Assembly (NCBI GenBank): GCA_041661385.1
Contig: JBAZUP010000001.1
Coordinates: forward strand, 354,560 to 418,559
Source: Patescibacteria group bacterium
GTDB lineage: Bacteria > Patescibacteriota > Patescibacteriia > Magasanikbacterales > GWA2-37-8
DNA: 64,000 bases
Direction of reading: 5' to 3'
Below the pieces are notes generated by a model. It had not been told where the DNA came from. It ran no database searches and was given only the letters and a program-made list of their open reading frames with translations. The translations under genes and the position numbers were made by a program. Positions 26,429-55,587 of the stretch are shown in pieces (the first letter of the stretch is position 1; every line of letters begins with the position of its first letter).

Positions 26429-26639
26429 GCACCATGCCTAGAGGTTATCTGGGTTTAGGTACTTGGCCTTCCAGCCTGAATTGTCAATGACATTTTAGCT
26501 AAATTATAGCCAAATGTCCAGCACATAATAGCTTAGAATAGGTGCTTTGCGAAGCTTAGTTATCTACAGTTTGTCTACTAGGGGCTCTGGACTAACTAGC
26601 GGGGTCTGCGTCATTAATGTCTATGAGATAATATAATCT

Positions 26640-36900: not shown

Positions 36901-36965
36901 AATATTAGGTTGAATATGATTATTGTGGAAAGTATTTTATTTGAAATTCTTTTTTTCACAAACAC
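27939..36965 (-). CDS. Giant (3008 aa) secreted multidomain surface protein
   Basis: Signal peptide. N-terminal alpha/alpha-toroid (prenyltransferase/squalene-cyclase-like) repeats (QKSNGSWGN, RFDGGWSS, QLQNGTWSS, QAEDGSF). About nine Fn3-like repeats of a FSAIYNDPD…YRIQVSTSS…WDSGTTTM…YYWRI unit. Two CBM4/9-like beta-sandwich modules. Two DUF2341-like modules (LRF.D…ELPWWVE…KIWVKV…GGTTIYMYYGN). Confidence 0.7.
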   Translation of the reverse strand: MFVKKRISNKILSTIIIFNLIFPSFVFPAFSSAQTSMVDTTLTSTNVTSTPAWFGPISYEDEMRKPPLNKIITIPTIIINTSTISDVSRIDWDQEVDLDGKKVKLNSDEVLNNFRIDPEIRSLIKMYRSDVDVTNKKNLFILSEKINKLQHSKEALHHLIAQKLVAQHNLPKDYFDLESRGLIIIPDNFTNLSKKTKNRLDLKSGKAVAQNNYEPLVQNVDTVTVAPTSSLSGGLQKIALGGFETYSMQSQSSPVVLDYNSGSPGNCGTGQYSMRVSGIPSQYYLTQVDSFGAGGSYSVTITADGKYYSSTDSCGAGAWCAHDFSTYNIPANKVTLITISGDGQSTVSSANLGSANGYLIWNGSCGSHDPKMQVWGNESRYRGIPPFANSSTEKAFNYLITKQKSNGSWGNTSTSFIETTAVLDAFNSIGVNATTTDQGIEWLDYSITDNNDFFAQKTKLQAFAGEPTTTAEILAGYVDEVTGGFAYNSGYQTDPATTADALMALTQSQYTDSGSTPDLTDAYAIYYLTQSQRFDGGWSSVEGGDSSIPVTVKAIEALLPYKDYTLWCGTPQSIDIETYLNKAITWLKNIQLQNGTWSSNLVDNALAYYILEKAGVNPTFENEAISYLTNSQAEDGSFANGNIYVTAAVLKALSMPPAMSGHLAVTDIIPLSTLQTGVSTSLKILVHNSGKNTVSNGILYLIADGYVLNTVDFVANNISIGASSTAEIIIPITNTYGLVGDVDFIVSLEGSNGTIHDGSRYKETLTFAADATGLPGLPTYFVAQKFSYNNTTPAVNVRWKQKDDPNRLNYMIMWRQFGTSTWTWAAVSSTQNGAWITPLIEDQKYEVTVGAMAQDGTRYTYYSDPAQVIVSGNQYEYATSTLSGVVNYAGQPLSNVYLLGYIEAAGPSGVGGIYSLSNVPYGRGAVGVLDFRYDQYMISYVNSGGNISNFKIPTNLKFDTENPTVTDVSIFGEGDMVVPNKKDVTIQYSVNDDEKLNDIGYVQSATFSYYDPHDQIWHSIGTQDGPLYQTMTYNWHIPDNLLGTDYQLQVVVRDYSGKQTTSTPWGPFEIVPGNSPPTFSFIAPSTLVPSEADLKYTIRWNAKDDEDNPDIYLYKDVDQDLSGHNGLIGIFKTNDILQQYEWDTSAISKGSFYIRAVVCDGVNTCTMVYSNNKVTINHFPPSAPTDIQINGLSNPSEITSTPKFSAIYNDPSGSSDLATHYRIQVGYSPAFTSLKWDSLKTHLTNSTTPGSRIEEVEYSGPPFGVSTTYYWRIKLWDKGGDEGAWSSTGNFTSSISTSSSCLFDQFSDSGGGLWLNKKPIQITGSNQGTQTGYVVPVTIDTASLVGAGKMQINLGDLRFSNSTGNELPWWVESGVNSAATKIWVKVDSIPSGGTTIYMHYGNLDAMSGGGYANNGSNTFDFFDNFEDQSFDGNLWGPGQRYGLPSENSGLMAFYVYSTYDGGQEIQTVPTFSGSKIAEFNMTMDMVPGNQYWKSLFFAARIGSSSTVFNSPWAVKSSGWWSNGVQDCAAVNGGPYLGSVAVDNNLGQFTFKLNTTTCGVASFTTTTDPYVFNFADQVGDGWGTVNFRDFRVRSFVSSTPTAGSAGAEELENDSCVGGGLSYPDGGSWHYKRPIEISGSTSTLVAYSVPVIADAASLISMGKMQSNLADLRFVDSQDKELPWWVESEANTSSAKIWVKINSIPPGGTTIYMYYGNPSARLAGSYANNGKNAFEFFDDFSDSIIDGTLWGYGQNVGLPTEGDGNLYFHAYSAYYDGKDVQTIPTFSGNRIAEFNMTMDNYIQHPEWKSSMFNARIGEASSVDVSPFASLSSGWWSNGVQACEPVNGGPYLGSVNVNADSGTYTLKLGSTTCGSTSFSATTSPYVLSFSVHVGTGATETVNFYDLRVRPIVYPEPVVGALGEEEIINAPPSQPSGLLVNNSSNPTKVTSTPIFSAIYNDPDTDDASDKYRIQVSTSSLFSSTSWDSGTSTMASTTRGNRIQDIIYSGAPLSSSTVYYWRIKFWDSVNNEGVWSANTSTFVLSLMINPSESRNLQTLGLMRSDNVIYDNSFEDGSTNYWKFWSGNGGTNTVDCTVSFTGNCSQKIIVSSAGNVWDSQFWQDLRVDTGINYTVKFRAKATTTSTITFGVNQDHSPWSDFGLAAGVSITPDWKQYAFTFTSNGTDELARVFYYVGTNINSYWLEDVEVTPDNLSLIKNPSFETSMNNWYFWSQNGDPQATNSVDCSEGSDGNCSNKTIVNYSGQHYQVQLSQNLIANTSTTYLLKFDAKSSVSTTETVVLTQNHDPYADLTWSDFSVNPSWQSYSFEVNPSQGDSNARVTFYLGRIAHTFQVDNVSLVPKQIITITSTPEFSAIYESLDASSTANSYQIQLIQSGGSFTSPFWDSGRQTFSENTPAGSRIPNIVYGGSGLQNGTKYYWRIKLWDNDDNEGQWTNGKDYFETIPPNRAPVAPTALWTENQTNPANLMVSLPKFSAIYNDLDLSDTANKYRVQVSTSSIFSNIKWDSGTTTMATTTSGTRVPDITYGGSTLASSIVYYWRISLVDVGGLPGAWSAETSTFSLNSAPAAPTDMLVEGQTNPTNIATTTPRFSAIYNDPDAGDQANRHRLQVSTSSVFASIKWDSGTTTMVTTTEGNRSPDILYTGSALATNIIYYWRVEFVDVGGLVGAWSTATSTFSLNTAPTVPTSTLTQGLVNPSNLTSTPKFSAIYTDLNSGDQANKYRIQVSTSSSFTVIKWDSGTTTMATTTENSRSPEITYAGSALVSSTIYYWRIAFEDVGGLAGGWSTTTSTFSLAGSPSYIQSQKAHGSKSVAFSGSVVGSNLVVVGITAYNVTFPTSTITDNKGNTYYKAAEAVKNSYRAAIFYAKNVIGGSGFTVSSTVTGTLAVHEYAGINTTNPLDKTMSGTGSSVTPSSGNITTTSTNELYFGLAWSAGNNNSWTAGSGYTIRQTELVNGVSTYQRLASEDRVIAIATTTAAKFTTSASNAWAAIIATFKSQ

Positions 36966-36967
36966 AT

Positions 36968-37630
36968 TTATTTTTTGTAGACTGGCCTTGCGGTTTCTAC
37001 AATCATTTGTATAATTTTATTAATCTCTTCATCGTTTAACGATCCACTAATGTCTTTAAAATAACCCCTATTTCTGAGCGCAACCATTTGAGCGTCTTGA
37101 GAAATAATTAATGTGCCGTATGATCTAGGAAAATAATTATCTATGCTTCCACACATTTCTACAGCGCGAAGCACGGAATAACCAGCTATATTTCCAATTT
37201 TAATTATATCTATATCGGTGTCACCATACTTATCCGGTGTTATTTTTTTCTCAAAATTAGGTATTAAATCCTTCACGCTCGAAGTTGAAATTATTATCGT
37301 ATAATCTAATTCATCAAACATAGAATCTTCTTCGTTTTTTTTGTTGATAACCGCGGCTTCAGACGGATCACATATACCCGGACCGTTATATGAAATATTG
37401 TGACTCAAATGCGCAACCGCACCTTGAGCTTTATAAACTAATCCAAAATTGGGTGGATAAGAAATTATAACACCAGCAGTCGGCTGATTCATTCTGTTTA
37501 AATTTTTTATCTTTAAATCGATAAAACCACCCGCTGATAGTAAAAAAATTATTGCTACAAATAAAAGTATAAAAGCTAGAAAAAATACATTTTTTTTTGA
37601 TTTTAAATTTAGCATACTTATAAACCCCAA
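36968..37630 (-). CDS. Hypothetical membrane-anchored protein
   Basis: 220 aa with an N-terminal TM helix. Overlaps the upstream giant-protein gene by 13 nt. Confidence 0.4.
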   Translation of the reverse strand: MGFISMLNLKSKKNVFFLAFILLFVAIIFLLSAGGFIDLKIKNLNRMNQPTAGVIISYPPNFGLVYKAQGAVAHLSHNISYNGPGICDPSEAAVINKKNEEDSMFDELDYTIIISTSSVKDLIPNFEKKITPDKYGDTDIDIIKIGNIAGYSVLRAVEMCGSIDNYFPRSYGTLIISQDAQMVALRNRGYFKDISGSLNDEEINKIIQMIVETARPVYKK

Positions 37631-40600
37631 TAATTAATCAAAGCTTGTTGATATGCAGGTCCGGGATCGGATTTGTAATTAGCAATATTTGAATGACCTA
37701 CTATTCCATTAAAATTAAGCAGTTGCTGTGATTCATTCTGAAAATCAAGGATATTTGGAGTACTACTGTTTGGGAAAATTTTTACGTCAAAAGCATACTG
37801 ACTACCCAAAAAATTCAAGAGATTAACTAATGAGATAATTTGACTCATGTGTGGTTGTTCCCAATACCTATAACCACCCCACGTTGTTGTGTTATCAAAA
37901 ACCATTCTACTATATCCATCCGGTTTAAATACGGCACCTCCGTCAGTTCTAAAAATGCCATTTTCAGTCGTTGTGTTTAGAAATCCATAATTTACCAACT
38001 CAATCCCAATTGTTGCGTTAGCGCTCCCATATTCATCATCACATTCGAATTCCTTACCAACCCAATGACCCCGAATACAACCATCGTGATACGAAATATT
38101 TTTGTCTGCAACCAATTGATAAATTGTTCCATTCTCGTCTTTATCTATTACATAGTGCGAGCTTTTTCCTCCAGGAATGTTGAAGGTGTCGATTGCGTTT
38201 TGTGCTGTCTTACCTGCGGTATAATGTATAACCACCTGTTTTATATCCTCTGGTTTTCGCATTTTTTCCGTACAATTGTCAGAACCTGTTTTTAATAAGG
38301 TATTATAACAATTATTTTTCATCCAATCATAATTAATATTCAACGGATTCGACGGTTTCTGAATTATAATATGCACTGTAGTGGTCGTTCCATAATTCCC
38401 TATCAAATCCCAATCTCCCAACCCAATATTCGTAGAATTAATATTTGTCGTTTCTTGCCAAACAACAGTACTTGTTCCAAAATTCACGGTGTATTGAGCG
38501 TTCCAATGAATGTTGTCCCCAATTGTAAATGTTTGATTATTTGTTGGCGAGTATATAACAGCCGACGCAGAAGGCAATAACCTACTCATAAAAGCGTCAT
38601 TCCACATTGAAGTAAATTGCTCAACAGTATACCCACCATTCAACCCCTCCCCAATAATATATCCAGCAATGCCTTGGTCAAAACTAATCGTTATGTAAAC
38701 TAAGCCGGTCCAATTTCCGTAAGTAAATGGAGCCGACGGTGTGTAGACGGTTTTACCTGCTTGTACCGCAGTATGAAAGATAGTTTTGGTCGTGCTTGTT
38801 ACAAAAAGCGAATCAATATCGCTTTCATTTGCCGAGGTAATTTTGCGCATTGTAATTCCTGGAAAAGTGCTTGAGGCGACGAGCTTTAGGCCTTTGACGG
38901 TAGAAATTGCTCCGACACTGAAGTTTTCTTCAAAAATATTTGACTCATCAAGCGAGGCTTGGAGGCCAAATATGGCCATGAACTCCTTCTTATACGTAGT
39001 TGAATCATCGTTAAATCGGTTAAAATAAGTGACCTTTGCCGATGAATCAATTCTAAGGCCCTTCCAATCAAAAGAGTACGGCTGACCATTGCTATAGGTA
39101 ACAGAGATGCCGTTAAAAATTGCCGCGCGCGTTGCTGTATGGGTAAAATCGGCCCCGACCACCTTAGCCAGCTCTCTTTCCGTTTGATCTAATCTATACA
39201 AATAATCTAAAGCCGATTTATAGAGTAATTGATTGGAAACAAAACTATTAGTTTGAGTGTCGGCTGTCGGGCGTAATTCAGGCGGTACGACTCGGTCGGT
39301 ATTTATTGCTATAGCATTCGTATTGCCAGTAATAATATTTTCATCCTGGGTTTCTACGGTGTTAACAGATACTGAACTGCCGATTTCACGCGTTGGCGCT
39401 TTAAATACCATTGAATAATTTTGATTTCTGCCGAGAGTAGAAGTGGCGGTGCTTGTTACGACAGAAACTCCATTTATTTTAATTTTTGCGTTGACCGCAA
39501 CAAGTGAAAGTGGCACGACATCATAGATAGTATCGAAAGTATTTAGAGTATCCTGATCTGCTTGCGTAGCCGGATCATAAGTCATTAACAATTCTTTATC
39601 AGCTAAATCAGAAACATTAGCAGTGTAATCAAGAATCGTATTTTGTTGGTCATCTAAAACAGTAAATTGAACAGTGTGCCGTAGGGTTGAAGGGATATAA
39701 TCATAAGTGTTTAAATCGACTACTACTTGATATGGCAATGTCCCAGGAATAAATGACAAATTTTGTTGCTTTGGATAATAACGGACCAATGCGTCACTAT
39801 AAGTTGAGGTCGGGGTGCTGCTAGAGGCCAAATAATTTTCCACTAGTGTTTGAAAAGCGGCAATCGGGGTGGACGTGCCATAATTATTGTTTAAATAATT
39901 ATCATAAAAATTCAAAACGTTAAATCCATCAGCGTTCATCCCTCCGATTATATCTACCGGCTGTTCATAATAATACGCATTAATGGTAGGGTCCATCGGT
40001 ACCCACTGACTACTTCCACCATCGTTTAGGTCAACGCCGCGGCTATAACCATAAGGGATATATGCCTCAACATATGTGTGTTCAATTACAAAAAACAGTG
40101 GATTATTATCGCTATCCACAAAGTAAATATATGGAATGTTTGTAAGTGTTAAAATTTGGGCGGCTGCTTCTGCAGATTGAACTCCGAGCAAATCTGTAAC
40201 TTCACTGACGCTCATTTTAGCGTCAATATGCCGATACCGAGCCGGAATATTGCTGTACCGCAACATCGCAATGAGAAGGGCCGACTTATCCATGTCGTTA
40301 CCTGCCCTTTCAATTAAGGTGGCATCTGACCCCTTCTTTGAACCGTAATATGGAATGTAGTCTACATTATTGTGAACGTAGTTTAGAATGGTCAACGGAC
40401 TATTATTTAAAGCATCAGCTTTGTCCTTGATAGCCTGAGAAAAAATAATCTCATTTCCGGCGGCCAGATAATCATTGGGGTTAGCACTAACATCCGCCAA
40501 TGCTTCCTGCCCCAAAAATGAAGTCAATCCCTTTTTCTTTAAAATTAAATCAAAATTTGAATTATATAATTTGCCGCCGTTAAAAAAATTCTTTATTTTT

Positions 40601-41319
40601 TGAAGCAGATTACTACCCTGCTCTTTATTATTAGAAAAAAGTTTGTTGTAATCCGATTCCGGTTTTTTATTAATCTGCCCGTTAAATGTTTGAACCTTAA
40701 ATGGCTGTTTGTTGGCCAGATTCTCGATATTCTTCCGTTCTTTGTCCGCGTCGGTATTACCGGTAAAAAAATCAGTTATTTTTTTAAAAAATCCTTCCTG
40801 TTTTGGACTCTCCGCTTGTTGATTTCTATAGGCATCAACACGATCAACTACATCCTGTGGCAAACCATTATCAATAAGATGCTGCTTGACCTTGTTTAGT
40901 TCGGCGTCCAGTGGAAGTGCTGGGTCTTTTTTAAATTTAGTTTTATCTTTTATTTCCGTCGGCTTAACTACTACCGGTGGGCCGCGATCTTGTTCTACTG
41001 TTGTTGACGGTGGAGTACTAGATACTGAATTTTCCTGATCCACCGCTCCAGTGGAAGTTTGATTTTCTGGAACCAACAAAGTATCCAGTAACGCCGCATC
41101 AAGATTTGTTGGGACGGTTGAAGAATTATTTGTGGGATCATAAGCGTTTAACCCGCTTTCCAAAGTTGAGCTATCAACTTGAGCTAAAGCCCGTGACACG
41201 GAAGGTAAAACAAGCGAAAGAGCTAAAAAAAATATCGCAGCAAGATGCGCGATTCGAATAATCCTACGACCCTCATTTGTAGAATATTTTTTCATGTGAT
41301 TACTATAGCACTTAACCAA
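37618..41319 (-). CDS. Large (1233 aa) secreted/membrane-anchored protein with a transglutaminase-like core (Cys replaced by Asp) and a C-terminal amidase_2/PGRP-type N-acetylmuramoyl-L-alanine amidase domain
   Basis: TGase-like core GNDMDKSALLIAMLRYSNIPARYRHI…EHTYVEAYIPYG, with Asp at the canonical Cys position. C-terminal amidase_2: QVVIHYTAGKTAQNAID…SHYVIDKDENGTIYQLV…ISYHDG…GIELVN…GHSNI…KSDPGP. Confidence 0.65.
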   Translation of the reverse strand: MVKCYSNHMKKYSTNEGRRIIRIAHLAAIFFLALSLVLPSVSRALAQVDSSTLESGLNAYDPTNNSSTVPTNLDAALLDTLLVPENQTSTGAVDQENSVSSTPPSTTVEQDRGPPVVVKPTEIKDKTKFKKDPALPLDAELNKVKQHLIDNGLPQDVVDRVDAYRNQQAESPKQEGFFKKITDFFTGNTDADKERKNIENLANKQPFKVQTFNGQINKKPESDYNKLFSNNKEQGSNLLQKIKNFFNGGKLYNSNFDLILKKKGLTSFLGQEALADVSANPNDYLAAGNEIIFSQAIKDKADALNNSPLTILNYVHNNVDYIPYYGSKKGSDATLIERAGNDMDKSALLIAMLRYSNIPARYRHIDAKMSVSEVTDLLGVQSAEAAAQILTLTNIPYIYFVDSDNNPLFFVIEHTYVEAYIPYGYSRGVDLNDGGSSQWVPMDPTINAYYYEQPVDIIGGMNADGFNVLNFYDNYLNNNYGTSTPIAAFQTLVENYLASSSTPTSTYSDALVRYYPKQQNLSFIPGTLPYQVVVDLNTYDYIPSTLRHTVQFTVLDDQQNTILDYTANVSDLADKELLMTYDPATQADQDTLNTFDTIYDVVPLSLVAVNAKIKINGVSVVTSTATSTLGRNQNYSMVFKAPTREIGSSVSVNTVETQDENIITGNTNAIAINTDRVVPPELRPTADTQTNSFVSNQLLYKSALDYLYRLDQTERELAKVVGADFTHTATRAAIFNGISVTYSNGQPYSFDWKGLRIDSSAKVTYFNRFNDDSTTYKKEFMAIFGLQASLDESNIFEENFSVGAISTVKGLKLVASSTFPGITMRKITSANESDIDSLFVTSTTKTIFHTAVQAGKTVYTPSAPFTYGNWTGLVYITISFDQGIAGYIIGEGLNGGYTVEQFTSMWNDAFMSRLLPSASAVIYSPTNNQTFTIGDNIHWNAQYTVNFGTSTVVWQETTNINSTNIGLGDWDLIGNYGTTTTVHIIIQKPSNPLNINYDWMKNNCYNTLLKTGSDNCTEKMRKPEDIKQVVIHYTAGKTAQNAIDTFNIPGGKSSHYVIDKDENGTIYQLVADKNISYHDGCIRGHWVGKEFECDDEYGSANATIGIELVNYGFLNTTTENGIFRTDGGAVFKPDGYSRMVFDNTTTWGGYRYWEQPHMSQIISLVNLLNFLGSQYAFDVKIFPNSSTPNILDFQNESQQLLNFNGIVGHSNIANYKSDPGPAYQQALINYWGL

Positions 41320-41457: not shown

Positions 41458-41532
41458 TGGCAGGCCCGCTCAGATTCGAACTGAGAACTCTCGTTTTGGA
41501 GACGAGAATTTTACCATTGAAACTACAGGCCC
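41458..41532 (-). tRNA. tRNA-Trp (anticodon CCA), CCA 3' end encoded
   Basis: Minus-strand GGGCCTGTAGTTTCAATGGTAAAATTCTCGTCTCCAAAACGAGAGTTCTCAGTTCGAATCTGAGCGGGCCTGCCA. Acceptor 5 WC + 2 G·U pairs. D-loop with GG. Anticodon stem CTCGT/ACGAG with loop CTCCAAA. T-arm CTCAG-TTCGAAT-CTGAG. Discriminator G. Confidence 0.8.
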
Positions 41533-41966
41533 ATTTTTTCCTTCCAATATTTACCTCTTTGAAATGTTTTGATTCGGTGACAATTTGCACATCGAACCTT
41601 ACATTTTTTTATTTCGCTCTGAATTGATTTAATTGAATGACAATTTCTAATCATCTGCGAAATACCCATCTCTTTTCCAAACACATGATCAAAATCCAAT
41701 GTTCTTATATCTTTATTACCACAATCCACACACGGATTTTTTTGTAGATACTCGTAGATAAACTTTCGCAATTTACTAGTCTGTTTCTTATTCCATTTTC
41801 TTGCTTTCTGCAAATAAACATTCTTATTTGCAATATAGTGGGACTTTCTATACGCCGAATGGCAACCTTTACACAAAGAATTGAACCAACCCTTTGCTTT
41901 ATTCTTCCAATTAAACTCTGATACTGGTTTATTGCTTTTACATTTTGAACAAATTTTGGATTTCAT
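41523..41966 (-). CDS. Free-standing HNH endonuclease with N-terminal zinc ribbon
   Basis: 147 aa. CSKCKSNKP…CKGCH zinc ribbon. HNH core CVDCGNKD…DFDHVFGKE…NCHSIKS…CANCHRIK. Its last ~10 nt (…aaaatgggcctgtag) overlap the 5' end of tRNA-Trp. Confidence 0.6.
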   Translation of the reverse strand: MKSKICSKCKSNKPVSEFNWKNKAKGWFNSLCKGCHSAYRKSHYIANKNVYLQKARKWNKKQTSKLRKFIYEYLQKNPCVDCGNKDIRTLDFDHVFGKEMGISQMIRNCHSIKSIQSEIKKCKVRCANCHRIKTFQRGKYWKEKMGL

Positions 41967-42027
41967 ATAGTATGTTCATACTACCATATGCGGTCTCCAA
42001 AATCAATCCCAGTTTGTAATACAATAT

Positions 42028-42834
42028 TTATTCGTCTTCAACAACTTTCTTCGACTTCTCAGACATCACCACCGCGAGCATGAAAGCCAGCATCGCCATA
42101 AATTCAACATAACTTATTCCAATGCCCATTAAAGTAAACGCCATGCCGATAATACTTGGCAAGGTGATAGCATACAAACCGATAATAAATAAGTTTTTTA
42201 GTTTCAAGTTGCGGCCGGTGAATTTGGCCATGACCGAAACAACTAAAGCAACTACCAGAATAGTATACAACTTGCTAATGAAAAAGACTACATAGAAACC
42301 GATAAAAACCGCGATAACGCCAAGGAAATAAAACCAAGGCTTTAAGAAGTTTTTCAGTGTGGATTCGAGCTGCCCTTTCGTTACCGTACCGTCTGGAACA
42401 TTTGCCCATTTTTGAATTCGGCTCTGGCCGCTTTCACTATCATTAAACTCCATGCGGTCGGCAGTGACAAACAAGCTGGCTTTGGAAGTCGAAGTAACAT
42501 AATCGGTCAAAGCGGCAGTAGTAGTTCTGACCGTATCAACAACTAAAACAAATTGATCATTTATCCGGTAAACAAAGGGTTGTGCCAAACGATTAACCTG
42601 AAGTGAACCGTTTTTAAAGTTCGCTTCAAAATCCGGCACGTTCGAAGAAAAATATTTTTGTCCGTTGGTAATTATCGGCCAAGCGCTGAGAGAAATCGGC
42701 ACGGCGACTGCAACTGACAAAACAAACACCCATAACGAAAAATAAGTCCACGCCCGGTCCGCGGCGAAGCGTTGTTTTTTTAACCACACGGGGTTATATA
42801 AACTATTTAGAAACGCCTTATAAAGGTTTTTCAT
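42028..42834 (-). CDS. Hypothetical membrane protein (N-terminal TM, periplasmic domain, C-terminal multi-TM region)
   Basis: 268 aa. Hydrophobic helices at the N-terminus and in the C-terminal 100 residues. Confidence 0.4.
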   Translation of the reverse strand: MKNLYKAFLNSLYNPVWLKKQRFAADRAWTYFSLWVFVLSVAVAVPISLSAWPIITNGQKYFSSNVPDFEANFKNGSLQVNRLAQPFVYRINDQFVLVVDTVRTTTAALTDYVTSTSKASLFVTADRMEFNDSESGQSRIQKWANVPDGTVTKGQLESTLKNFLKPWFYFLGVIAVFIGFYVVFFISKLYTILVVALVVSVMAKFTGRNLKLKNLFIIGLYAITLPSIIGMAFTLMGIGISYVEFMAMLAFMLAVVMSEKSKKVVEDE

Positions 42835-42850
42835 AAACCTGATAATAAAG

Positions 42851-42870
42851 GACGAGGATCTAGCCTCGTC
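42851..42870 (-). terminator. Hairpin terminator after rpmG (gacgaggatctagcctcgtc)
   Basis: 7-bp stem followed by T-rich tract in minus orientation. Confidence 0.35.
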
Positions 42871-42877
42871 ACATTAT

Positions 42878-43033
42878 TTATTTCGTTTCTTTGTGAGCAA
42901 CGTGTTTCTTGCAGTGCCGGCAAAACTTGGAAAGTTCCAAACGGTTCTTCAAGATTTTTTTGTTCTTGGAGCTGAAATAATTTATTCGTTTGCATGAAGA
43001 GCATTCGAATTTTACCATGTTATCTTGAGACAT
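42878..43033 (-). CDS. rpmG: 50S ribosomal protein L33
   Basis: Minus-strand ORF atgtctcaagataacatggtaaaattcgaatgctcttcatgcaaacga… encodes MSQDNMVKFECSSCKRINYFSSKNKKILKNRLELSKFCRHCKKHVAHKETK (51 aa) with the L33 C4 zinc ribbon. Absent from the ORF track because it is short. Confidence 0.8.
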   Translation of the reverse strand: MSQDNMVKFECSSCKRINYFSSKNKKILKNRLELSKFCRHCKKHVAHKETK

Positions 43034-43064
43034 ACTTGTTAAATTAAGCGCATTAATCGCGCTG

Positions 43065-43137
43065 AGCCGATGTCGGGAATTGAACCCGAGACCCCGTCCT
43101 TACCATGGACGTGCTCTACCATCTGAGCTACATCGGC
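43065..43137 (-). tRNA. tRNA-Thr (anticodon GGT)
   Basis: GCCGATGTAGCTCAGATGGTAGAGCACGTCCATGGTAAGGACGGGGTCTCGGGTTCAATTCCCGACATCGGCT. All four stems canonical. Anticodon loop ATGGTAA. Confidence 0.85.
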
Positions 43138-43163
43138 GTCGAGTAAATTTTCAAATCCCCTTG

Positions 43164-43236
43164 AGCCGTCTCGGGGATTTGAACCCCGGACCTACAGTTT
43201 ACAAAACTGTTGCTCTACCAGCTGAGCTAAGACGGC
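43164..43236 (-). tRNA. tRNA-Thr (anticodon TGT)
   Basis: GCCGTCTTAGCTCAGCTGGTAGAGCAACAGTTTTGTAAACTGTAGGTCCGGGGTTCAAATCCCCGAGACGGCT. Anticodon loop TTTGTAA. Confidence 0.85.
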
Positions 43237-43276
43237 ATGGATAATAAATCGCTCAGTTGATTGAGCTATGTTGAAC

Positions 43277-43361
43277 TGGTGGGCAGACTAGGATTCGAAC
43301 CTAGGAAGGCGTAGCCAGCTGATTTACAGTCAGCCCCGTTTGACCGCTTCGGTATCTGCCC
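43277..43361 (-). tRNA. tRNA-Tyr (anticodon GTA), long variable arm, CCA encoded
   Basis: GGGCAGATACCGAAGCGGTCAAACGGGGCTGACTGTAAATCAGCTGGCTACGCCTTCCTAGGTTCGAATCCTAGTCTGCCCACCA. Confidence 0.85.
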
Positions 43362-47864: not shown

Positions 47865-47865
47865 A

Positions 47866-48045
47866 GGATAAAAAAAAGACCTAAATTAAAGGTCTTGGGT
47901 CCCGATTTTAACGGGAGGTTCCACCCAAGTTTCCTCCTGGTTGGAGGACGCTTTTTAAAATTTTCACCAGCTCCGAAGGAGCCAACCTTCATCCGCACTG
48001 GTAAAGACAATCATACGCTTTGAAAGGTTTTCTGTCAAACAAAAA
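47866..48045 (-). ncRNA. Putative glycine-specific T-box riboswitch leader of glyQS
   Basis: In minus orientation: stem III CCTCCaaccaGGAGG, then the T-box-like core AAACTTGGGTGGAACCTCCCG (UGGA bulge complementary to the UCCA end of tRNA-Gly). The antiterminator arm CTTGGGT…ACCCAAG overlaps (shared AAG) the terminator AAGACCtttaatttAGGTCTT+T8, immediately before the ATG. Stem I and the specifier codon are not confidently located. Confidence 0.5.
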
Positions 48046-48050: not shown

Positions 48051-48092
48051 CTAAAAAAGAAAGGCGCCTGGGGATGAATTCACCCAGGCGCC
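48051..48092 (-). terminator. Strong intrinsic terminator (ggcgcctggg…cccaggcgcc + T-run) after the GC-rich island genes
   Basis: Perfect 10-bp GC stem followed by tttctttttt in minus orientation, just downstream of the stop at 48132. Confidence 0.55.
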
Positions 48093-48131
48093 GGTATAAC
48101 AAATGAACTACAATTTTTGAGGTTGCTAGCA

Positions 48132-48602
48132 CTACGCCGCGTAAGCGCTGCGCCTCGTCTGGAGCGGATTTTCGGGTTTGGGCACCGACTTTGGAACCGG
48201 CTTGTAAACTGGTTCCGTCTTCTTCGGTCCATGACCCCGTTCGACGCAGGTATCTACAGCCTCATCGAAGAAATCTCTCATGCTACTCATATCTGAATCC
48301 TGAAACTCCGAATAATCCTTGTACGGAATTTTGTCCATTATGAACAGGATCTGACAGACGCAAAATTCTTCCGTCTGATCTCTGTCATATCCGACTCTTT
48401 CGCCGGCATCCCTACAAGACAGAAGAAAACTTCTGACAGTAGCGATTGGATATTCATTCCGATACTTGGGTAGATCGGAAACCACTATGCCTCTCGCCAT
48501 TTCCTTCGAGCCTTGTTCCGGCTCACAGGAATTTTTGACAGAGTCATCTGCGAACACCAGTGTTGCAATGATTAAGAGCACCATTGCGACAAGAGTTTTC
48601 AT
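48132..48602 (-). CDS. Hypothetical secreted protein (GC-rich island)
   Basis: 156 aa. Signal peptide MKTLVAMVLLIIATLVFA. Cys-containing mature part and Pro/Lys-rich C-terminus. Codon usage far more GC-rich than its neighbours. Confidence 0.45.
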   Translation of the reverse strand: MKTLVAMVLLIIATLVFADDSVKNSCEPEQGSKEMARGIVVSDLPKYRNEYPIATVRSFLLSCRDAGERVGYDRDQTEEFCVCQILFIMDKIPYKDYSEFQDSDMSSMRDFFDEAVDTCVERGHGPKKTEPVYKPVPKSVPKPENPLQTRRSAYAA

Positions 48603-48634
48603 AACTCCTCCGGTAGAACGGGCAGTTGAACAGG

Positions 48635-49129
48635 CTACTTCTTGGTTTGTTCTCGAACCAGTTGGTTGTAAGAACGTTCGTAGCCCTGCAGGCTGTTTTC
48701 CGTTTCGTTCACCTCGCGCGGCGACATCTTACAGCTCGTGAGGTCCTCGCGCAGATAGCGAACGAAATATCCAACTTCCGCGTTGGTCTTCATCTCGCGC
48801 TTGATGCTCTTCCACTGCCCCTTCAAGAGGCCGCAGAATGAATCATTGCCCCGGAAGTGCCTTTCGTAGCTCTTCAGGCTCTTCTCCGTCTCGCCCACGG
48901 CGGCAGGCGACAATTCGCACCGCTCGAGATCGTTCCGGAGGAACAGAACGTAGAATCCGATCTTTTCCGGATCCTTGATGTTCTTGATGCTTCTCCACTG
49001 GGTGATGACCTCCTCGCACCTCGGTGCGTGAAGGTTCTGGTAGCTGGTCCGGGGGTCGATGACGACCTTGTTGCCGGCGACAGTCGGCGATGCAAGCAAG
49101 AGGGCCGCGATCACGAAAAGCATGTTCAT
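48635..49129 (-). CDS. Hypothetical secreted protein with internal duplication (GC-rich island)
   Basis: 164 aa with signal peptide. Two ~60-aa repeats (C..V…W+SIK…YF+RYLREDL.SCKMSP.EV.ETE.SL..YER). Confidence 0.45.
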   Translation of the reverse strand: MNMLFVIAALLLASPTVAGNKVVIDPRTSYQNLHAPRCEEVITQWRSIKNIKDPEKIGFYVLFLRNDLERCELSPAAVGETEKSLKSYERHFRGNDSFCGLLKGQWKSIKREMKTNAEVGYFVRYLREDLTSCKMSPREVNETENSLQGYERSYNQLVREQTKK

Positions 49130-49172
49130 ATCGATTCTCCTGTACCGTTTTAACGGTACTGTGGGTCAAGCG

Positions 49173-49667
49173 TTAACCGCGATAGATGAGTCTTGCTGCG
49201 TGGCTCGGCCGGATTGCGAGAAAACACAGTTCGCCCGAATAGCCGAGTGGCCAAGAAGTGGCTCTCGCCAGATTTTCTTTCACCAGCAGTTCGTGTTCGT
49301 GCGCGCAATTGTAATCTACATTCAGAGGAATAATTCTTTCGTGTTTATTGATCAGGCAAAAGCTAAAACCATTGTTCGCCCGAACATAAACGCGATTTGC
49401 GAGAAACTCCCACGGATGCACCCTCTTAAAATACAAAAGCTCGGGTGACTTCGCGAGAACCAAACCTGCATCTCGAAGGCGTCCCATTACGGAATCGACT
49501 TGTGGCAGCGATGAATATTTCGGATCATATTCACCGTGTTTGTTAATTTCCTCGGAAAGAAATTGACGAACGGTAACGAGAACGAAACCGTCGTTAAATT
49601 CTCTGAAAATTCGGACCGGCCTCATTTTTTGTAGTCCTTTGTAAATGAACGGGTTAAAGACGAGCAC
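49173..49667 (-). CDS. Hypothetical protein (GC-rich island)
   Basis: 164 aa ORF with consistent high-GC codon usage. No recognisable motif. Confidence 0.4.
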   Translation of the reverse strand: MLVFNPFIYKGLQKMRPVRIFREFNDGFVLVTVRQFLSEEINKHGEYDPKYSSLPQVDSVMGRLRDAGLVLAKSPELLYFKRVHPWEFLANRVYVRANNGFSFCLINKHERIIPLNVDYNCAHEHELLVKENLARATSWPLGYSGELCFLAIRPSHAARLIYRG

Positions 49668-49807
49668 GCTCGTCTGTAGTTGATACCGGCCTAAAAAGGC
49701 CGAATTTAAGCACTTTTTTTACTATGCGTAAATCCGGCTTCATTAGACACGATAACAGCCAATTATACACCTTTTTTCGGGTTTTGTCAACCCTACTCGC
49801 AAACAAT

Positions 49808-49839: not shown

Positions 49840-52800
49840 TTATGACGATTTTTTTCTTAAGCGTATCCGCTTCCTCAAAAAGAAATACAATTCATTACAT
49901 GCAAAAATAACCAATATCACGAGTGCAGAAATTAATTTCCAATCAAACAACCCTACCCACCAATGCGCGCTAACTAATTCAATATTTTTATGAATACTAT
50001 CTCCTTCGCTAACTTTAAATGGCGCACCGGTATATAATTTATAATTTTTTGTTTCAACTTTTACATAATATGTTCCTTCGGGCACCAAAAATGAATACCG
50101 GCCGGTTTTGTCAGTTACCTGCGGATTTTGTTGTTTAAACTGGTCCGCTGGCCAAACCTCATATTTACGGCTCGCCGGGTTCAAATAATACATTGTTATC
50201 TTTGCGTCCTTAACTCGAATTTCATCACCTTGATATCTTCGATAGATATACCCTTCTGGGTCAACTACAGTAACGAGACGCAATTCCTTTTCGCCATCCT
50301 TTTTATTTTTATATTGGATATTAGTAACGATTTCATATTCACCCTGAGTCGGCGGCATTAAGAACGAGGCGGTATAAATGCCGGTTTTATCGAGATCCAA
50401 AAATTCGAACTCACGCACCACATATTCAACCGTCTCCGCGGAAGCCGCGGAAAATGAAAATAATTTTTTGATAAATGATTCGCGGGTTGGTTTTAGATTC
50501 CGTAAAATCAATCGGCCGGTTATTTTAGAAACTTCTTTATCCGGCTTAATAACCAATTTTACATTTTGATTAACAACCGTATTTAAAGTTTGCGTAACTT
50601 TATTATTTTCCGTCGAAACAGAAAGATTAATATCTAAATCAATTTTATTATCACCCGATCGCGCAAAAATCACATCCGTTGGAATCACACTTTTTTCCGC
50701 CACGCTCAAATTTTCAATTGGTTTTGGCACGGCTGGAATGGCAACCGCTACTGCCGGAGCTTCAATATTTGGTTTTGGCGCTTCCGGAATGACAACTTCT
50801 GTTTTAGGTGTTTCAAGATTTGGTTTTGGAACTGCTGGAAGTGCTACTTCAGTTTTCGGTTTATCGAGATTTGATTTTGGTACGGTTGGAACTGCAACTT
50901 TAATTTTATCAACATTTTTATTTTGAATTGGGTAAACAGCAACCGGTGTTAAGATTTTATTTAAGCCCGGTAAAGTTATACTAATACCCTGCCACTTTTT
51001 AAGATCCGACCAGGTATTAATACTAAATTTATGGATACTCTGATAAAGAATCGGGAACTTGTGTAACAAGTTTACAACATCACCCGCAAAAGTAAGATCC
51101 AAAGATTCTTTGGGCGGCGTATCCGTAATCTTAATGAGCTCTAAATTTGTAAATATTTGTGATAATTTTATTTGATCGACTTTAACCGGCGGCATCGAGA
51201 TGTCCTTAAAGATTTTTTCAACAAGCGGAATATAAACCGCGGGACTGCTGGTAACCACCGGTTCAACCACCGGCTGAGATATCGGCAAAATCGGAGGGAT
51301 AATACTTATTATTTTATCAGTAATATTTTTTATTATTGAAATGTTACTTTCCGGCACAACAACAACTGGCTTAATTTTTTTATAAACTATTGAACTTGAT
51401 AATACCTCACTCGAAACACCATACTCGGTGTACATTCTTACATAAACTTTATGCTCACCTTCCAAACAATCTGTGAGGCCAAAACAAAGATTCCAATATT
51501 TACTCCCTGCAAATTGCTCCTGCCCAACTCCCGAAAAACTTGGCTCATTGGCGATTGCCATTTTTTTAGAATTTCCTCCGATTAAAGTCAGGTCAACATC
51601 TGGAACATTTGTTTCTTTAAGACCGCCATTAATTAACACGCTTAAAGGCATTATTTGCCCATCAACCCCAGCAACTGGAGCTGGCGGTGTATACACAGCT
51701 CCGGAAAAACCTCCGCCCGATGAAACCGGCGTAGCGGCAGGTGTCGCGGCTTCCGGAGTAGAAGTTGCAGCAGGTGTTAATGTAATCGTGGCAACAGAAA
51801 GCGAAGAATAGGAAGAATAAGTACCAGAAATATTTAGGTACTCAGCTCTAACCCTAAATTGATAAGAAGTTCCCTCGGTCAAACCATTTACATTAACCAG
51901 TGTAGCAGTCGTGGTTGCGGAAAGTCCCGATGAGTATAATAAATAATAAACAGTAGTCGCAGGGTTGTCGTTTGCCGCCCAAGATAAAGAAAGACTTGTT
52001 GATGTAACGGAAGAGACAACCGGCGTACCGGGAATAGCCGGCGCAGTATAATCACTGACATTCACAATATTATTCATTGATCCATCATTATTTACCGAAC
52101 GAACTCCAAAAGTATAATCGGTATTTGGAATCAAACCAGTCAATGTCGGTGTATTCGATGTAGTCGTTAGAGAACTAAAACTATTATTACCATCAATATA
52201 ATATACCGTTCCGGCCGGATTGCTGTTCGTGCTGAATGAAAGTGCGATTGAAGTGCTAGACGATGCGCTGGTGCTAAGCGCTACGATGTCGTTTGCTTTG
52301 GTGTAAACACTTTGCGAAGTGGTGACAAAAGATGAATCACCATAAACATTGATAGCGGCAACTCGGAACCAATAAGCGGTATTAGGAGTTAGGGATGAAG
52401 CAGTGACGGAAGAAACGCCAGCGGCTGTGGTTGAGACACTGGTAAATGAAGTGCCGTTGGTAGATTTTTCTACAACGAATCCGGTTTCATTATTTGAATT
52501 ATCACTCCAACCAACAACAACCGATGTTGCCGCAATGCTTGAGGTAGTTATATTCGTGGGAGCAATTGGCGAGCCAAGCGTGGTCGTGGCGGTTGAAGAA
52601 ACCGAATATGCTGAATATCTTCCGGCAATACCGGCATATTCTGCCCGGACTTGAAATCGATATGATGTATTACTTGCTAAACCGGTTATAATTTTGGTTG
52701 TATCCGCACTGACGGTTGTTGAACTGCCGTCCGAAATTAAAATATAATAAACAGTAGAAGCGGAATTTGAATTTGCATTCCAAACCAATTGTAAAGATGA

Positions 52801-55587
52801 AGTTGAAACCGACGAAACGACTAAGGTGTTTGGAACCGCGGGAACTGTATAATCGGAAACCGTGACTGCATTATTTTGTGAGCCATCGTTGTTAACCGAT
52901 TTAACTGTAAAAGTATATCCCGTGTTTGGAGTTAATCCTAACAGCGTCGGGTTAATAGTAGTAGTGGTGATTGGCGAAAAACCATTCGTGCCGGTTATGT
53001 AATATGATGTGCCGGCCGGATTGCTGTTCGCGCTGTATGACAAAGAAATTGAATTGGTCGTTGAAGCTGTGGTAATAAGATTTGTTGGATCAGCTGCTTT
53101 GGTGAAAGTGCTTTGTGAAGTTGTAACAAAGGATGAAACTCCGACTGTTCCGGTCGCCGCGACCCTAAACCAATAAGCAGTATTTGGAGTTAAGGATGAA
53201 GCAGTGACGGAAGTAACGCCGGCGGCTGTGGTTGAAACATTTGTAAACGATGTACCGTTGGTAGATTTATCAACAACGAAACCGATTTCATCATTCGAAT
53301 TATCGGTCCAATTTAAAGTCATGCTAGTATCAGAAATATTGGTAGTGGTTGGACTACTCGGAGCATTTGGAGAGCCAGCGCCAAAACCAAGTGTGACGTC
53401 GCTGAGAACCGGCGTTTCAGTGCCGTCACCTTCAAACCAGACTTTATATTGCGCCCACTGATCATTTATTCCATCGCCAATCGTGCTAGTGGTTGCGATA
53501 TTGCAAGTAACCAAACTTGATACTTTTGAACAGCCGGCCGCAGTATCATCAAAATAGGTTGTGGATACTCCCCCCGGACCGATCCAATCGGTATAAACTC
53601 CGGGACTGCCGGAAGAGCTCGGGGCAGTTCGAATTTGAAATTTCAAATTTGTGCCAGCAGGAACTGTTTCAGTCCAGAAAATACTCTCAACACTCGCAGA
53701 AACATTATTATTATCAAATGGTACCGAGGTGAGGGTCGCGGAAGTGTTGTATTTATAATATCCAAAAGTGACACTATTCAGCGAAGGGGTGACGGTATTA
53801 TTAGAAGTTGAAAGTGAAGCCTCAAATTGGACATAGCGATGATGAGGAGAAACACAACCGCCAGCGGTAATTGAACCGCCGTTCGCAATATTTGTACAAC
53901 TAGCAAAAGCCGTGGCGCCGGTCATGGCGGCATTGTCGGCCGAGCGAACCTTCATGGTGATTGTTTGCCCACCCGTTTCCGCCCAGGTTAAATTCTGCCA
54001 ATTATCTACGCCAGTGGTGAGGTCAATAGAGCCGGAAGTGTAAGTGCCAGATGCGTAATAAGTCGTTACTAAGGCTGCGGTAGTGGCTGCAGGTAGCGTG
54101 GTACCACTTATCGAGTTTGATTGTAAATAAATCCTACCGGCTCCACCAACACCTCCAGCATCCAAATAACAATCTGGGTCATCTAATATAGGATACCCTG
54201 TGCCACCAGAGGCAACCACCAAACTTGAACCAAGATTTAAATTATCTCCACCGATATATATTGAACCACCCGAACCAGCACCATTGTAATTAACAGTATT
54301 TTGACCTTTAGAAAAAATATTTCCACTTACATTAATTGTATTTACGGTTGTTATAAAGATTCCCGCGCCACTTGAATAACCAAAATTATTACCGCCGCCG
54401 GCGCTCCCTAAAAATATTTTTTGACTTAAATCACTCGTTCCATAAACTACACCACCAGGTGCCCGTACAATTCCGTTTGTATCTTGACCACCTGTTCCAT
54501 AACCACCGCCAGATGAAGACCGCCAGTTACATAAACCATCAAAGTAAGCTCCAGCACCACCGCCAAGGTTATTTTGAGCCGCATTTGCTGCACCTAAACC
54601 ATTATAGGATTCGCCTTGATAACCTCCCGCAGGAGCACGATAACCAAGATTCGATACATTTATCGAACCACCAGTATTAATTGTCACTGTGCCATTTGCA
54701 AAAAAAACAAGCACACCGCCCTTTGCTCCGTCCCAGGCACTCGCTGTTATAGATCCGCCACTATTAATTGTAACATTGGTATATTGCGGCACTCTTTGAA
54801 TAATGACTCGCTGATTGGTAGTCGCCGTGCCAATATTCAAATCGTTGGTGCTGGTTGCCGTGCCGTAGTATTTTGTTTTTCCAGGACTTGCAAGCGTGAC
54901 CGTAGTGGCATTATTGGCCGGAGTTGCGCCAATTGTTACAAATTCATAATTACCAACATTTCCTTTATTTCCTAATACACCCTGAAGATTAATAAGCAAT
55001 ATTTTATCTCCGACTGCCAAACAACCAGAAGGAACCCCTGCCGATAAATTAATCGTCGTAGCATCTGAAAAAGATGTAACATTATATGCAATGCCGTCCG
55101 CACAAGTACGACCGCCGTTACGATTAGTCTGAGTGTTAATATTAAAAGCCGTTGAAGTTGTTACTGCCCCGTCCGACCCATTACCACCAGATGCACCCGA
55201 TGACAAGGCTAATTGAATCGCGGCGCTGTCTCCAGAACCAGAAACATTGGTCTGCGAAAAACTGGCGGCTGGACCACCTGACGCAGTGCCGTTAAAATCT
55301 GTATCACTGGTTGAAGTTGTATAAAAAGTTGAAGTGGTAAGTTGTAAATCTAATCCGCTATTTACAACTTGTAAATTGGCATCTTTAGAATTATATATCG
55401 TGTAGCCACTATCGTTCGTCGGGTGTACCGCTGTCGCGGCAACATTTGCCCCGCCCGCCCAACTGGTTTGGAAAAAATTTACCAATGCGGCGGCTGAACT
55501 GGTTTGGAAAAATAAAAAAAACCCTACAAATAACTGTGTAATTATATAAAAGAAAATGCTCTTTTTCTGACCTGTTTTGTTGGGCAT
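49840..55587 (-). CDS. Giant (1915 aa) cell-surface protein with signal peptide, Gly-rich region, Fn3-like repeats, Pro-rich repeats, CarboxypepD_reg/Cna-B-like domain and C-terminal TM anchor
   Basis: N-terminal signal (IFFYIITQLFVGFFLFFQTSSAAA). Repeated Fn3-like units (SPNAPSSPTTTNISDTSMTLNWTDNSNDEIGFVVDKSTNGTSF… twice). PAVPKPNLETPKTEV repeats. GRYSFLVPEGTYYVKVETKNYKLY (transthyretin-like fold). C-terminal WWVGLFDWKLISALVILVIFA + basic tail. Confidence 0.7.
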   Translation of the reverse strand: MPNKTGQKKSIFFYIITQLFVGFFLFFQTSSAAALVNFFQTSWAGGANVAATAVHPTNDSGYTIYNSKDANLQVVNSGLDLQLTTSTFYTTSTSDTDFNGTASGGPAASFSQTNVSGSGDSAAIQLALSSGASGGNGSDGAVTTSTAFNINTQTNRNGGRTCADGIAYNVTSFSDATTINLSAGVPSGCLAVGDKILLINLQGVLGNKGNVGNYEFVTIGATPANNATTVTLASPGKTKYYGTATSTNDLNIGTATTNQRVIIQRVPQYTNVTINSGGSITASAWDGAKGGVLVFFANGTVTINTGGSINVSNLGYRAPAGGYQGESYNGLGAANAAQNNLGGGAGAYFDGLCNWRSSSGGGYGTGGQDTNGIVRAPGGVVYGTSDLSQKIFLGSAGGGNNFGYSSGAGIFITTVNTINVSGNIFSKGQNTVNYNGAGSGGSIYIGGDNLNLGSSLVVASGGTGYPILDDPDCYLDAGGVGGAGRIYLQSNSISGTTLPAATTAALVTTYYASGTYTSGSIDLTTGVDNWQNLTWAETGGQTITMKVRSADNAAMTGATAFASCTNIANGGSITAGGCVSPHHRYVQFEASLSTSNNTVTPSLNSVTFGYYKYNTSATLTSVPFDNNNVSASVESIFWTETVPAGTNLKFQIRTAPSSSGSPGVYTDWIGPGGVSTTYFDDTAAGCSKVSSLVTCNIATTSTIGDGINDQWAQYKVWFEGDGTETPVLSDVTLGFGAGSPNAPSSPTTTNISDTSMTLNWTDNSNDEIGFVVDKSTNGTSFTNVSTTAAGVTSVTASSLTPNTAYWFRVAATGTVGVSSFVTTSQSTFTKAADPTNLITTASTTNSISLSYSANSNPAGTSYYITGTNGFSPITTTTINPTLLGLTPNTGYTFTVKSVNNDGSQNNAVTVSDYTVPAVPNTLVVSSVSTSSLQLVWNANSNSASTVYYILISDGSSTTVSADTTKIITGLASNTSYRFQVRAEYAGIAGRYSAYSVSSTATTTLGSPIAPTNITTSSIAATSVVVGWSDNSNNETGFVVEKSTNGTSFTSVSTTAAGVSSVTASSLTPNTAYWFRVAAINVYGDSSFVTTSQSVYTKANDIVALSTSASSSTSIALSFSTNSNPAGTVYYIDGNNSFSSLTTTSNTPTLTGLIPNTDYTFGVRSVNNDGSMNNIVNVSDYTAPAIPGTPVVSSVTSTSLSLSWAANDNPATTVYYLLYSSGLSATTTATLVNVNGLTEGTSYQFRVRAEYLNISGTYSSYSSLSVATITLTPAATSTPEAATPAATPVSSGGGFSGAVYTPPAPVAGVDGQIMPLSVLINGGLKETNVPDVDLTLIGGNSKKMAIANEPSFSGVGQEQFAGSKYWNLCFGLTDCLEGEHKVYVRMYTEYGVSSEVLSSSIVYKKIKPVVVVPESNISIIKNITDKIISIIPPILPISQPVVEPVVTSSPAVYIPLVEKIFKDISMPPVKVDQIKLSQIFTNLELIKITDTPPKESLDLTFAGDVVNLLHKFPILYQSIHKFSINTWSDLKKWQGISITLPGLNKILTPVAVYPIQNKNVDKIKVAVPTVPKSNLDKPKTEVALPAVPKPNLETPKTEVVIPEAPKPNIEAPAVAVAIPAVPKPIENLSVAEKSVIPTDVIFARSGDNKIDLDINLSVSTENNKVTQTLNTVVNQNVKLVIKPDKEVSKITGRLILRNLKPTRESFIKKLFSFSAASAETVEYVVREFEFLDLDKTGIYTASFLMPPTQGEYEIVTNIQYKNKKDGEKELRLVTVVDPEGYIYRRYQGDEIRVKDAKITMYYLNPASRKYEVWPADQFKQQNPQVTDKTGRYSFLVPEGTYYVKVETKNYKLYTGAPFKVSEGDSIHKNIELVSAHWWVGLFDWKLISALVILVIFACNELYFFLRKRIRLRKKSS

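Follow-up and report, generated by a model that had tools for sequence, protein, structure and literature searches.

In the amelioration framework of Lawrence and Ochman, islands acquired by horizontal transfer are detected by their atypical GC content and codon usage. The locus examined here is a cassette of three small genes (A, B and C) upstream of the glycyl-tRNA synthetase (GlyRS) gene glyS in a Patescibacteria group bacterium (GTDB lineage Bacteria; Patescibacteriota; Patescibacteriia; Magasanikbacterales; GWA2-37-8), and the window is the whole 64 000 nucleotide stretch that was analysed (GenBank assembly GCA_041661385.1, contig JBAZUP010000001.1, positions 354 560 to 418 559 of the forward strand). 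Like genomic islands, the cassette deviates in GC content and codon usage, consists of orphan genes and fills a site whose contents vary between more distant relatives. Unlike them, it is syntenic across sister species between which synonymous divergence is saturated, it has neither mobility genes nor attachment-type repeats, and its deviation is limited to one open reading frame (ORF) and has not been ameliorated.

Two further kinds of described system bear comparison with the cassette. It shares with leader-attenuated operons (T-box, PyrR and ribosomal-protein leaders) a consensus promoter, a conserved hairpin with an adjoining U tract ahead of the first ribosome-binding site and a downstream segment able to pair with the 3′ arm of the hairpin, but its leader has no Rfam match and the motif occurs only before this cassette. 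With the secreted Cys-containing orphans of host-associated or episymbiotic bacteria it shares predicted signal peptides, Cys pairs, rapid divergence and a varying number of modules (one or two in B), whereas it also includes a conserved gene for a cytoplasmic partner, A, and its products have no homology or structural similarity to characterised effectors. The explanation that we prefer, with moderate confidence, is that the cassette is a clade-specific operon inherited in place upstream of glyS, gated by its leader, with B and C exported, A as their cytoplasmic partner and the codons of B held by a gene-specific force.

Composition and coding capacity

The region at 48051–49700 has a GC content of 0.499 compared to 0.396 for the window and ranks first among all 1650 bp windows (mean 0.396, standard deviation 0.035). 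An initial annotation, made from the DNA sequence, had put it at about 55 % GC against 35–38 % in the flanks. Though it is the GC-richest region of the window, a value near 55 % applies only to 48600–49300 (GC 0.549, the highest of all 700 bp windows), which corresponds to gene B (GC 0.558), and the immediate flanks are at 0.38–0.44. The GC content at third codon positions (GC3) is 0.79 in B, 0.52 in C and 0.47 in A, compared to 0.21–0.49 in the other 48 ORFs (elsewhere about 0.33), and B has a period-3 composition, with a GC content of 0.52 and 0.37 at the first and second positions. In sliding windows, GC3 is 0.72–0.88 over the whole of the B ORF and 0.32–0.56 in A and most of C; the last window, in the tail of C, reaches 0.76. 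The GC excess is thus essentially that of the third codon positions of gene B and is step-shaped at the boundaries of its ORF. A compositional comparison had been suggested by the initial annotation, and both the region as a whole and the codon usage of B were found to deviate from the window. The coordinates of the features are collected in Table 1.

Table 1. Features of the cassette and of the adjoining glyS leader, in order of position in the window
Feature	Position	Strand	Description
glyS promoter and T-box-like leader (outside the cassette)	47865–48045	−	Promoter at 48038–48010: TTGACA, 17 nt spacer, TATGAT
Cassette intrinsic terminator	48053–48092	−	GGCGCCUGGG...CCCAGGCGCC then UUUCUUUUUU; hairpin at 48092–48063, −25 kcal/mol
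Gene C	48132–48602	−	156 aa; predicted signal peptide; five Cys; Pro/Lys-rich tail ending PENPL; GC3 0.52; GGAGG ribosome-binding site
Gene B	48635–49129	−	164 aa; predicted signal peptide; two tandem modules of ~58 aa with two Cys each; AGGAG ribosome-binding site
Gene A	49173–49625	−	150 aa from ATG; without signal peptide (cytoplasmic); GC3 0.47
Structured 5′ leader	49626–49761	−	About 133–136 nt: H1 (49738–49699), H3 (49675–49658), then the ribosome-binding site of A
H1	49692–49738	−	15–16 bp hairpin (49738–49699) then C-UUUUU-A; terminator-like
Cassette promoter	49762–49790	−	TTGACA, 17 nt spacer, TATAAT; 12 of 12 consensus positions

All three genes had been predicted, and all three are real ORFs, as seen from the period-3 composition of B, their ribosome-binding sites, the existence of homologues and ratios of nonsynonymous to synonymous substitutions per site (dN/dS) of about 0.1. 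Between the close alleles at two related loci (L087 and L090, see below), dN and dS are 0.03 and 0.32 for A, 0.03 and 0.28 for B, and 0.03 and 0.26 for C. A, B and C are therefore protein-coding genes under purifying selection. The additional ORFs that overlap them had been put down to GC-richness, and the alternative frames were indeed no more open than expected from synonymous shuffles of six B homologues. In AT-rich genomes a GC-rich patch is often an RNA gene, and the mRNAs fold somewhat more stably than shuffled sequences (z = −2.4 for B, −2.9 for the B gene of the related locus L086, and −4.8 for C), but the idea that the GC-rich stretch is non-coding, as a structured RNA or as the host of an overlapping or antisense gene, is effectively refuted by the period-3 composition and the low dN/dS, by the duplication at the protein level within B, and by homologues with saturated synonymous change in which no alternative frame is conserved. 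The stretch also has no Rfam match.

Distribution and conservation of position

Word-seeded searches with A, B and C against 5.8 billion proteins, and a full HMMER scan with B against 1.84 billion representatives, were used to find relatives. In what follows W stands for the window, L numbers denote the loci of relatives and P numbers denote proteins related to B. The word-seeded searches returned only the cassette itself, in one Patescibacteria metagenome-assembled genome and in three other assemblies with an identical locus. The HMMER scan recovered six true relatives of B of 98–204 aa (P0004, P0005, P0006, P0008, P0009 and P0010) and one false positive, P0007 (1339 aa), which was rejected because its match arises from cadherin-like repeats.

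On the contigs of the relatives the gene order is DNA_alkylation/NUDIX/MamF–A–B–(C, an 85 aa ORF or nothing)–glyS–M16–TIM–TPR–DUF1189. Thus, a homologue of A (150–181 aa) followed by a homologue of B lies directly upstream of glyS in L084/L085, L086 and L088, and in L084 and L086 glyS is followed by the M16 peptidase, TIM, TPR and DUF1189 genes, as in the window; the gene order of an unsequenced Logan contig is likewise identical. On the other side, the A–B pair follows DNA_alkylation in L084/L085 and a MamF-like gene in L086 and L087, with NUDIX and DNA_alkylation further upstream in L086. In the window a gene for a 1915 aa protein sits between MamF and the cassette, while MamF directly precedes the cassette in L086 and L087. 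The third gene is C in L087 and L090, an 85 aa ORF in L084, and is missing from L086 and L088. The start and stop codons of A and B overlap by 4 nt in L084 and L086. No paralogues of A, B or C were found elsewhere in the window or in the glyS loci of 80 relatives.

More distant relatives, in which GlyRS identity is 84 % or less (GTDB representatives L004–L017 and L028), have the order holB–lipoprotein–frr–[variable gene]–glyS and contain none of the three cassette genes within 10 kb. As the cassette is absent from these genomes and in place in the sister genomes, its origin goes back to the base of a narrow clade of Magasanikbacteria-like Patescibacteria, and it has stayed at this position ever since. 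The slot before glyS is variable across the family. In L016 (Magasanikbacteria GW2011_GWC2_37_14, positions 9413–9808, minus strand) the slot between frr and glyS in a genome of 36 % GC holds an orphan ORF of 131 aa, with 60 % GC, a GC3 of 0.77 and its own GC-rich terminator, that does not detectably resemble A, B or C, and in L015 it holds two low-GC genes, one of which has an SPPY methyltransferase motif.

The initial annotation had read the island as a recent horizontal acquisition, possibly from a high-GC source, with the GC excess as the un-ameliorated signature of the donor, and had named conserved homologues in relatives as an observation that would speak against this. The GC-richness of the region, the codon usage of B, which is radically unlike that of the flanks, the lack of the cassette and the different gene order upstream of glyS in the more distant relatives, and the variable contents of their pre-glyS slot could all be accommodated by recent gain. 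However, A and B (with C in one lineage), together with the promoter, leader and terminator, are at the same locus upstream of glyS–M16–TIM in at least five other related genomes representing sister lineages, with dS saturated, and lie between MamF or DNA_alkylation and glyS in L084/L085, L086, L087/L090 and L088. In addition, the excess is confined to one ORF rather than extending over the whole insert. The borders likewise bear no signatures of mobility: there is no integrase or recombinase gene at 47.8–49.9 kb, no convincing flanking direct (attachment-type) repeats were found at the borders of the cassette, and the nearest tRNA genes (41458–43361) are about 4.7 kb past its terminator. Hence, recent gain appears highly improbable.

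The cassette proteins have nevertheless diverged far more than their neighbours. Between species, identity is 33–58 % for A, 29–56 % for B and 36–40 % for C, while the flanking proteins of W, L084 and L086 share 62–91 % identity (GlyRS 87–91 %, M16 82–86 %, DNA_alkylation 69–80 %). The dS of the flanks is saturated (>1.5 or not computable) and the dN of A, B and C exceeds theirs by a factor of two to seven. This disparity raises the question of whether the locus is a fixed site for a hypervariable cassette, at which divergent A–B(–C) alleles, circulating in the wider lineage and also in its GC-richer members, are swapped by homologous recombination through the conserved flanks and the GC3 reflects a source pool or GC-biased gene conversion at a hot spot of recombination. 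The third gene varies, Magasanikbacteria relatives with a GC3 of 0.6–0.7 exist (L010 and L015), and L089 is GC-rich throughout its 996 bp. L088 is also pertinent, as it pairs a typical glyS similarity (89 % over 155 aa) with the most divergent A (33 %), an outlying B, a different upstream gene and no leader. Vertical descent is therefore not fully clean, in view of L088 and the differing third gene, and some allele replacement is likely. As a general account of the cassette, though, replacement is on balance rather unlikely: in the window the GC3 excess respects the boundaries of the B ORF, unlike what would be expected of conversion in tracts, conservation of the leader is good, the divergence ranks of A and B roughly track those of the flanks (for MamF as for A and B, L087 is the nearest to W), and every family member of known context is in a low-GC genome of one clade.

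Persistence of high GC3 in gene B

The GC3 of B is 0.79 in W, 0.77 in L089, 0.75 in L086, 0.73 in L090, 0.72 in L088, 0.68 in L087 and 0.60 in L084, compared to 0.30–0.43 in the flanks. If mutation is modelled with two states and GC3 is 0.33 at equilibrium (our own calculation), GC3 relaxes at about 2.25 times the synonymous rate, and about 90 % of any excess is gone after one substitution per site per lineage. The cassette may have been acquired by the ancestor of this small clade, but given this predicted loss neutral decay of a single old acquisition cannot give the values observed. Hence, the GC-richness of B is maintained and is not the fading signal of a transfer.

The shift in codon usage is general, and the share of a codon among those for its amino acid differs widely between the B family and the flanks, at 0.86 vs 0.26 for AAG, 0.86 vs 0.17 for TTC, 0.76 vs 0.21 for ATC, 0.72 vs 0.20 for TAC and 0.69 vs 0.22 for AAC. 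Because the shift ends at the boundaries of the B ORF, it points to a force specific to this gene rather than to a regional process (biased gene conversion, for example), and repeated import of a segment of exactly the size of the gene is unlikely. A force on the synonymous sites of B, exerted for instance through translation rate or the stability of this segment of the mRNA, would keep its GC-ending codons.

A high-GC donor had also been envisaged, but no donor lineage was confirmed in the 5.8 billion and 1.84 billion proteins searched, with one possible exception (L154), and all relatives of B with known context sit in the same low-GC clade. L154 (ERZ650301 NODE_73649) is a contig of 586 bp with 62 % GC and a coverage of 0.63 that carries a B-like ORF, P0009 (GC 0.56, GC3 0.71), which lacks a signal peptide and comprises only the C-terminal half of the B module. 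On its opposite strand is a cytochrome-c-like exon (GC 0.70, GC3 0.95) that resembles green-algal cytochrome c. The contig may be either chimeric or a hint that the B module is present in a GC-rich organism. A bolder proposal, to which we give only a small chance, is that the GC-ending codons of B, in a single operon of a reduced, AT-rich genome, are a conserved, selected regulatory or expression device (for example for translation speed, the use of particular tRNAs or protection of the mRNA), or that the B module is shared with GC-rich organisms and the cassette is an exchanged host-interaction factor.

Transcription unit and leader RNA

A promoter, a structured leader, A, B, C and a terminator make up a transcription unit, complete in itself, on the minus strand. 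The cassette promoter is a perfect sigma-70 promoter that also precedes the A homologues of L084/L085, L086 and L087. In the window it is itself preceded by the terminator of the gene for the 1915 aa protein. A and B are separated by 43 nt and B and C by 32 nt, each spacer including the ribosome-binding site of the gene that follows. The strong GC-rich terminator predicted by the initial annotation is present (Table 1), and L084, L086, L087 and L088 have a GC-rich terminator at the same position, with stems of differing sequence. As glyS has its own promoter and leader directly downstream, the cassette is transcribed independently of it.

The leader is far better conserved than the coding genes of the cassette. 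Compensatory double changes were found in 8 of the 26 base pairs of H1 and H3 (five in H1 and three in H3), 91.5 % of paired cells in the two hairpins hold standard pairs compared to 29–44 % in slid controls, and the observed covariation score was reached by none of 500 shuffles. A covariance model of the leader (R1) matched only upstream of A homologues, and no Rfam family matched the leader at either gathering or lax thresholds. The leader is missing from L088, where another ORF abuts A. A 29-codon upstream ORF in the leader of the window is not conserved in L086 or L087.

H1 has the shape of an intrinsic terminator, since a search with its DNA pattern retrieved 63 unrelated, generic terminator-like metagenome sites, none with A, B or C nearby. 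In every sequence the 3′ arm of H1 could alternatively pair with the segment GGCCGG (49691–49686), although this segment comes after the U tract and hence after the terminator. H1 is probably a transcription attenuator, and transcription from the consensus promoter would then be gated by H1 such that expression of the cassette is conditional.

Products of genes A, B and C

No recognisable domains had been noted in the three proteins, and none of them was matched in searches of Pfam, NCBIfam, PHROGs, PADLOC and the sequences in PDB. The presence of signal peptides and Cys residues in two of them was also upheld, on the basis of the N-termini of B and C, the two Cys in each repeat of B and further conserved Cys residues.

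The start codon listed for A, a GTG that would give a product of 164 aa, falls inside the conserved leader hairpin. The A family is characterised by an invariant GY-x-GE-x-C motif (G128, Y129, G131, E132 and C134) together with N77 and R149. A single-sequence AlphaFold2 model of A was unusable (mean predicted local distance difference test, pLDDT, of 37.6), and scans of metagenome and viral contigs with a profile of A found nothing.

The N-terminus of B, MNMLFVIAALLLASPTVAG/NK (...ASPTVAG/NK, with the slash at the predicted cleavage site), has a hydrophobic core and a small-residue cleavage site and appears to be of the Sec type. The same layout, with no lipobox Cys, is shared by B, C, P0004, P0005, P0006, P0008, P0010 and the C homologue in L087. 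The internal duplication reported for B is clear, with 24 of 49 aligned residues identical and a score of 128 compared to 23 ± 4.4 in shuffles (z = 23.7). The two repeats differ from one another with a dN of 0.38 and a dS of 1.76. Two modules are present in the B of this genome and in P0008, and one in most relatives. An AlphaFold2 model built from an alignment of eight sequences (pLDDT 77) is all-helical, with a helix–helix–short helix–helix arrangement repeated twice, and Foldseek searches of PDB and BFVD with this model gave no match below E = 0.6. One Pfam family, PF17079 (SOTI, the Drosophila male-specific protein scotti), aligned weakly to residues 83–133 of B (25.5 bits, E = 1.9e-5); this match is considered spurious because it does not reach the gathering score (27), seven of the eight family members fail to match, and the Pfam family is eukaryotic and unrelated.

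C also begins with what appears to be a Sec-type signal peptide (MKTLVAMVLLIIATLVFA/DD; ...TLVFA/DD). Its homologues, which follow B in L087 and L090, share 35–40 % identity with the C of the window. A tail motif, P-x-P-(E/D)...NPL-(R/Q), is common to C (48135–48200, and likewise in L087) and to the B protein of L084 (P0005; positions 10300–10390 of L084), which ends ...PGPTNPLRER... in a locus that has no C, and this shared tail might be a tag that both use for binding or sorting. The coding region of C is predicted to fold with an energy of −165.6 kcal/mol, compared to −136.3 ± 6.1 kcal/mol in dinucleotide shuffles (z = −4.8; A, z = −1.2; B, z = −2.4).

Possible role of the cassette

The bacterium is presumably episymbiotic. 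B and C are probably secreted surface or host-interaction factors. They would be exported as two small proteins stabilised by disulfides, with their site of action extracellular, on the envelope or where the bacterium contacts a host or partner cell, and A could serve as their cytoplasmic partner, in the role of a regulator, chaperone or modifier. Secreted interaction factors had already been suggested by the initial annotation; the signal peptides and conserved Cys residues of two products agree with the secreted part of that suggestion, and the interaction role remains a reasonable guess.

Small, exported, Cys-stabilised and fast-diverging products, variable accessory genes and the tight coupling of A and B, including the overlaps of 4 nt in L084 and L086, would also be expected if B (and C) were an exported toxin or bacteriocin and A its cytoplasmic immunity or maturation partner. 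Searches for known defence, toxin-immunity and bacteriocin profiles gave no matches with PADLOC and nothing significant with PHROGs, Pfam or NCBIfam, so that no toxin, immunity, bacteriocin-processing or transporter domain supports this possibility. Furthermore, no dedicated exporter is adjacent, and a cytoplasmic immunity protein would be ill-suited to a toxin that is merely exported by Sec. We consider a toxin–immunity pair decidedly unlikely.

Several points weigh against our preferred explanation of a leader-gated operon with exported products, beyond the irregularities of L088 discussed above. Attenuation has been read from the shape of the hairpin, and the promoter and H1 may equally delimit a small RNA (about 70 nt); no alternative antiterminator or effector (ligand, tRNA, protein or leader peptide) was identified for H1. 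Selection may act on the synonymous sites of B, but the window has no ribosomal-protein or EF-Tu genes by which optimal codons could be defined, and frr of the more distant relatives is not enriched in GC3, which argues weakly against ordinary translational selection. Export of B and C is predicted from their N-termini. Finally, A, B and C had no family match in Pfam, NCBIfam, PHROGs or PADLOC, either as single proteins or with every family member, there was no match to PDB sequences with single proteins or profiles, and the Foldseek search, made with the B model only, gave no structural relative.

Neighbouring features

Of the leader that separates glyS from the cassette, only the 3′ half matches the T-box model RF00230, with Stem I unmatched, at 27.8 bits (E = 8.8e-5 in a 191 nt search; gathering score 93). 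The leader is kept in L084, L086 and L088, and contains AACUUGGGUGGAACCUCCCG followed by a terminator in which the 5′ arm, CCCAAG, is complementary to CUUGGG of AACUUGGGUGGAACCUCCCG. It probably represents a divergent, patescibacterial form of the glycine T-box.

Three giant ORFs are on the minus strand of the window, at 27939–36965 (3008 aa), 37618–41319 (1233 aa) and 49840–55587 (1915 aa), the last of which is the gene upstream of the cassette and encodes FN3 repeats. A LOOT RNA (26340–26461, minus strand; RF03000, 67 bits, above the gathering score) adjoins a serine recombinase gene (26640–27932) and a gene for a ParB–N6/N4 methylase fusion (23756–25084). The segment at 15000–22012 has a GC content of 31–35 % and includes a pair of genes resembling a cyclic-oligonucleotide-based antiphage signalling system (CBASS), namely an SMODS/AGS_C cyclase (19456–20832) and a SAVED-domain effector (20834–22012); this segment is probably a defence island. 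A heavy-metal cluster at 5103–9997 (minus strand) includes a P-type ATPase with HMA domains and an HMA/DsbD_2/cupredoxin fusion protein.

Significance

GC content alone would have mislabelled this locus as a fresh transfer, and it is the synteny in sister genomes that shows its long residence. Three protein families that had not been characterised, together with a conserved RNA leader, are defined by the analysis, and all are restricted to one clade of uncultivated Patescibacteria. An ORF with a GC3 of 0.6–0.8 in genomes of roughly 40 % GC offers a natural case in which to ask what holds synonymous sites off their mutational equilibrium, and two fast-evolving proteins, both predicted to be exported, fit what one would expect of molecules in contact with a host or partner cell.

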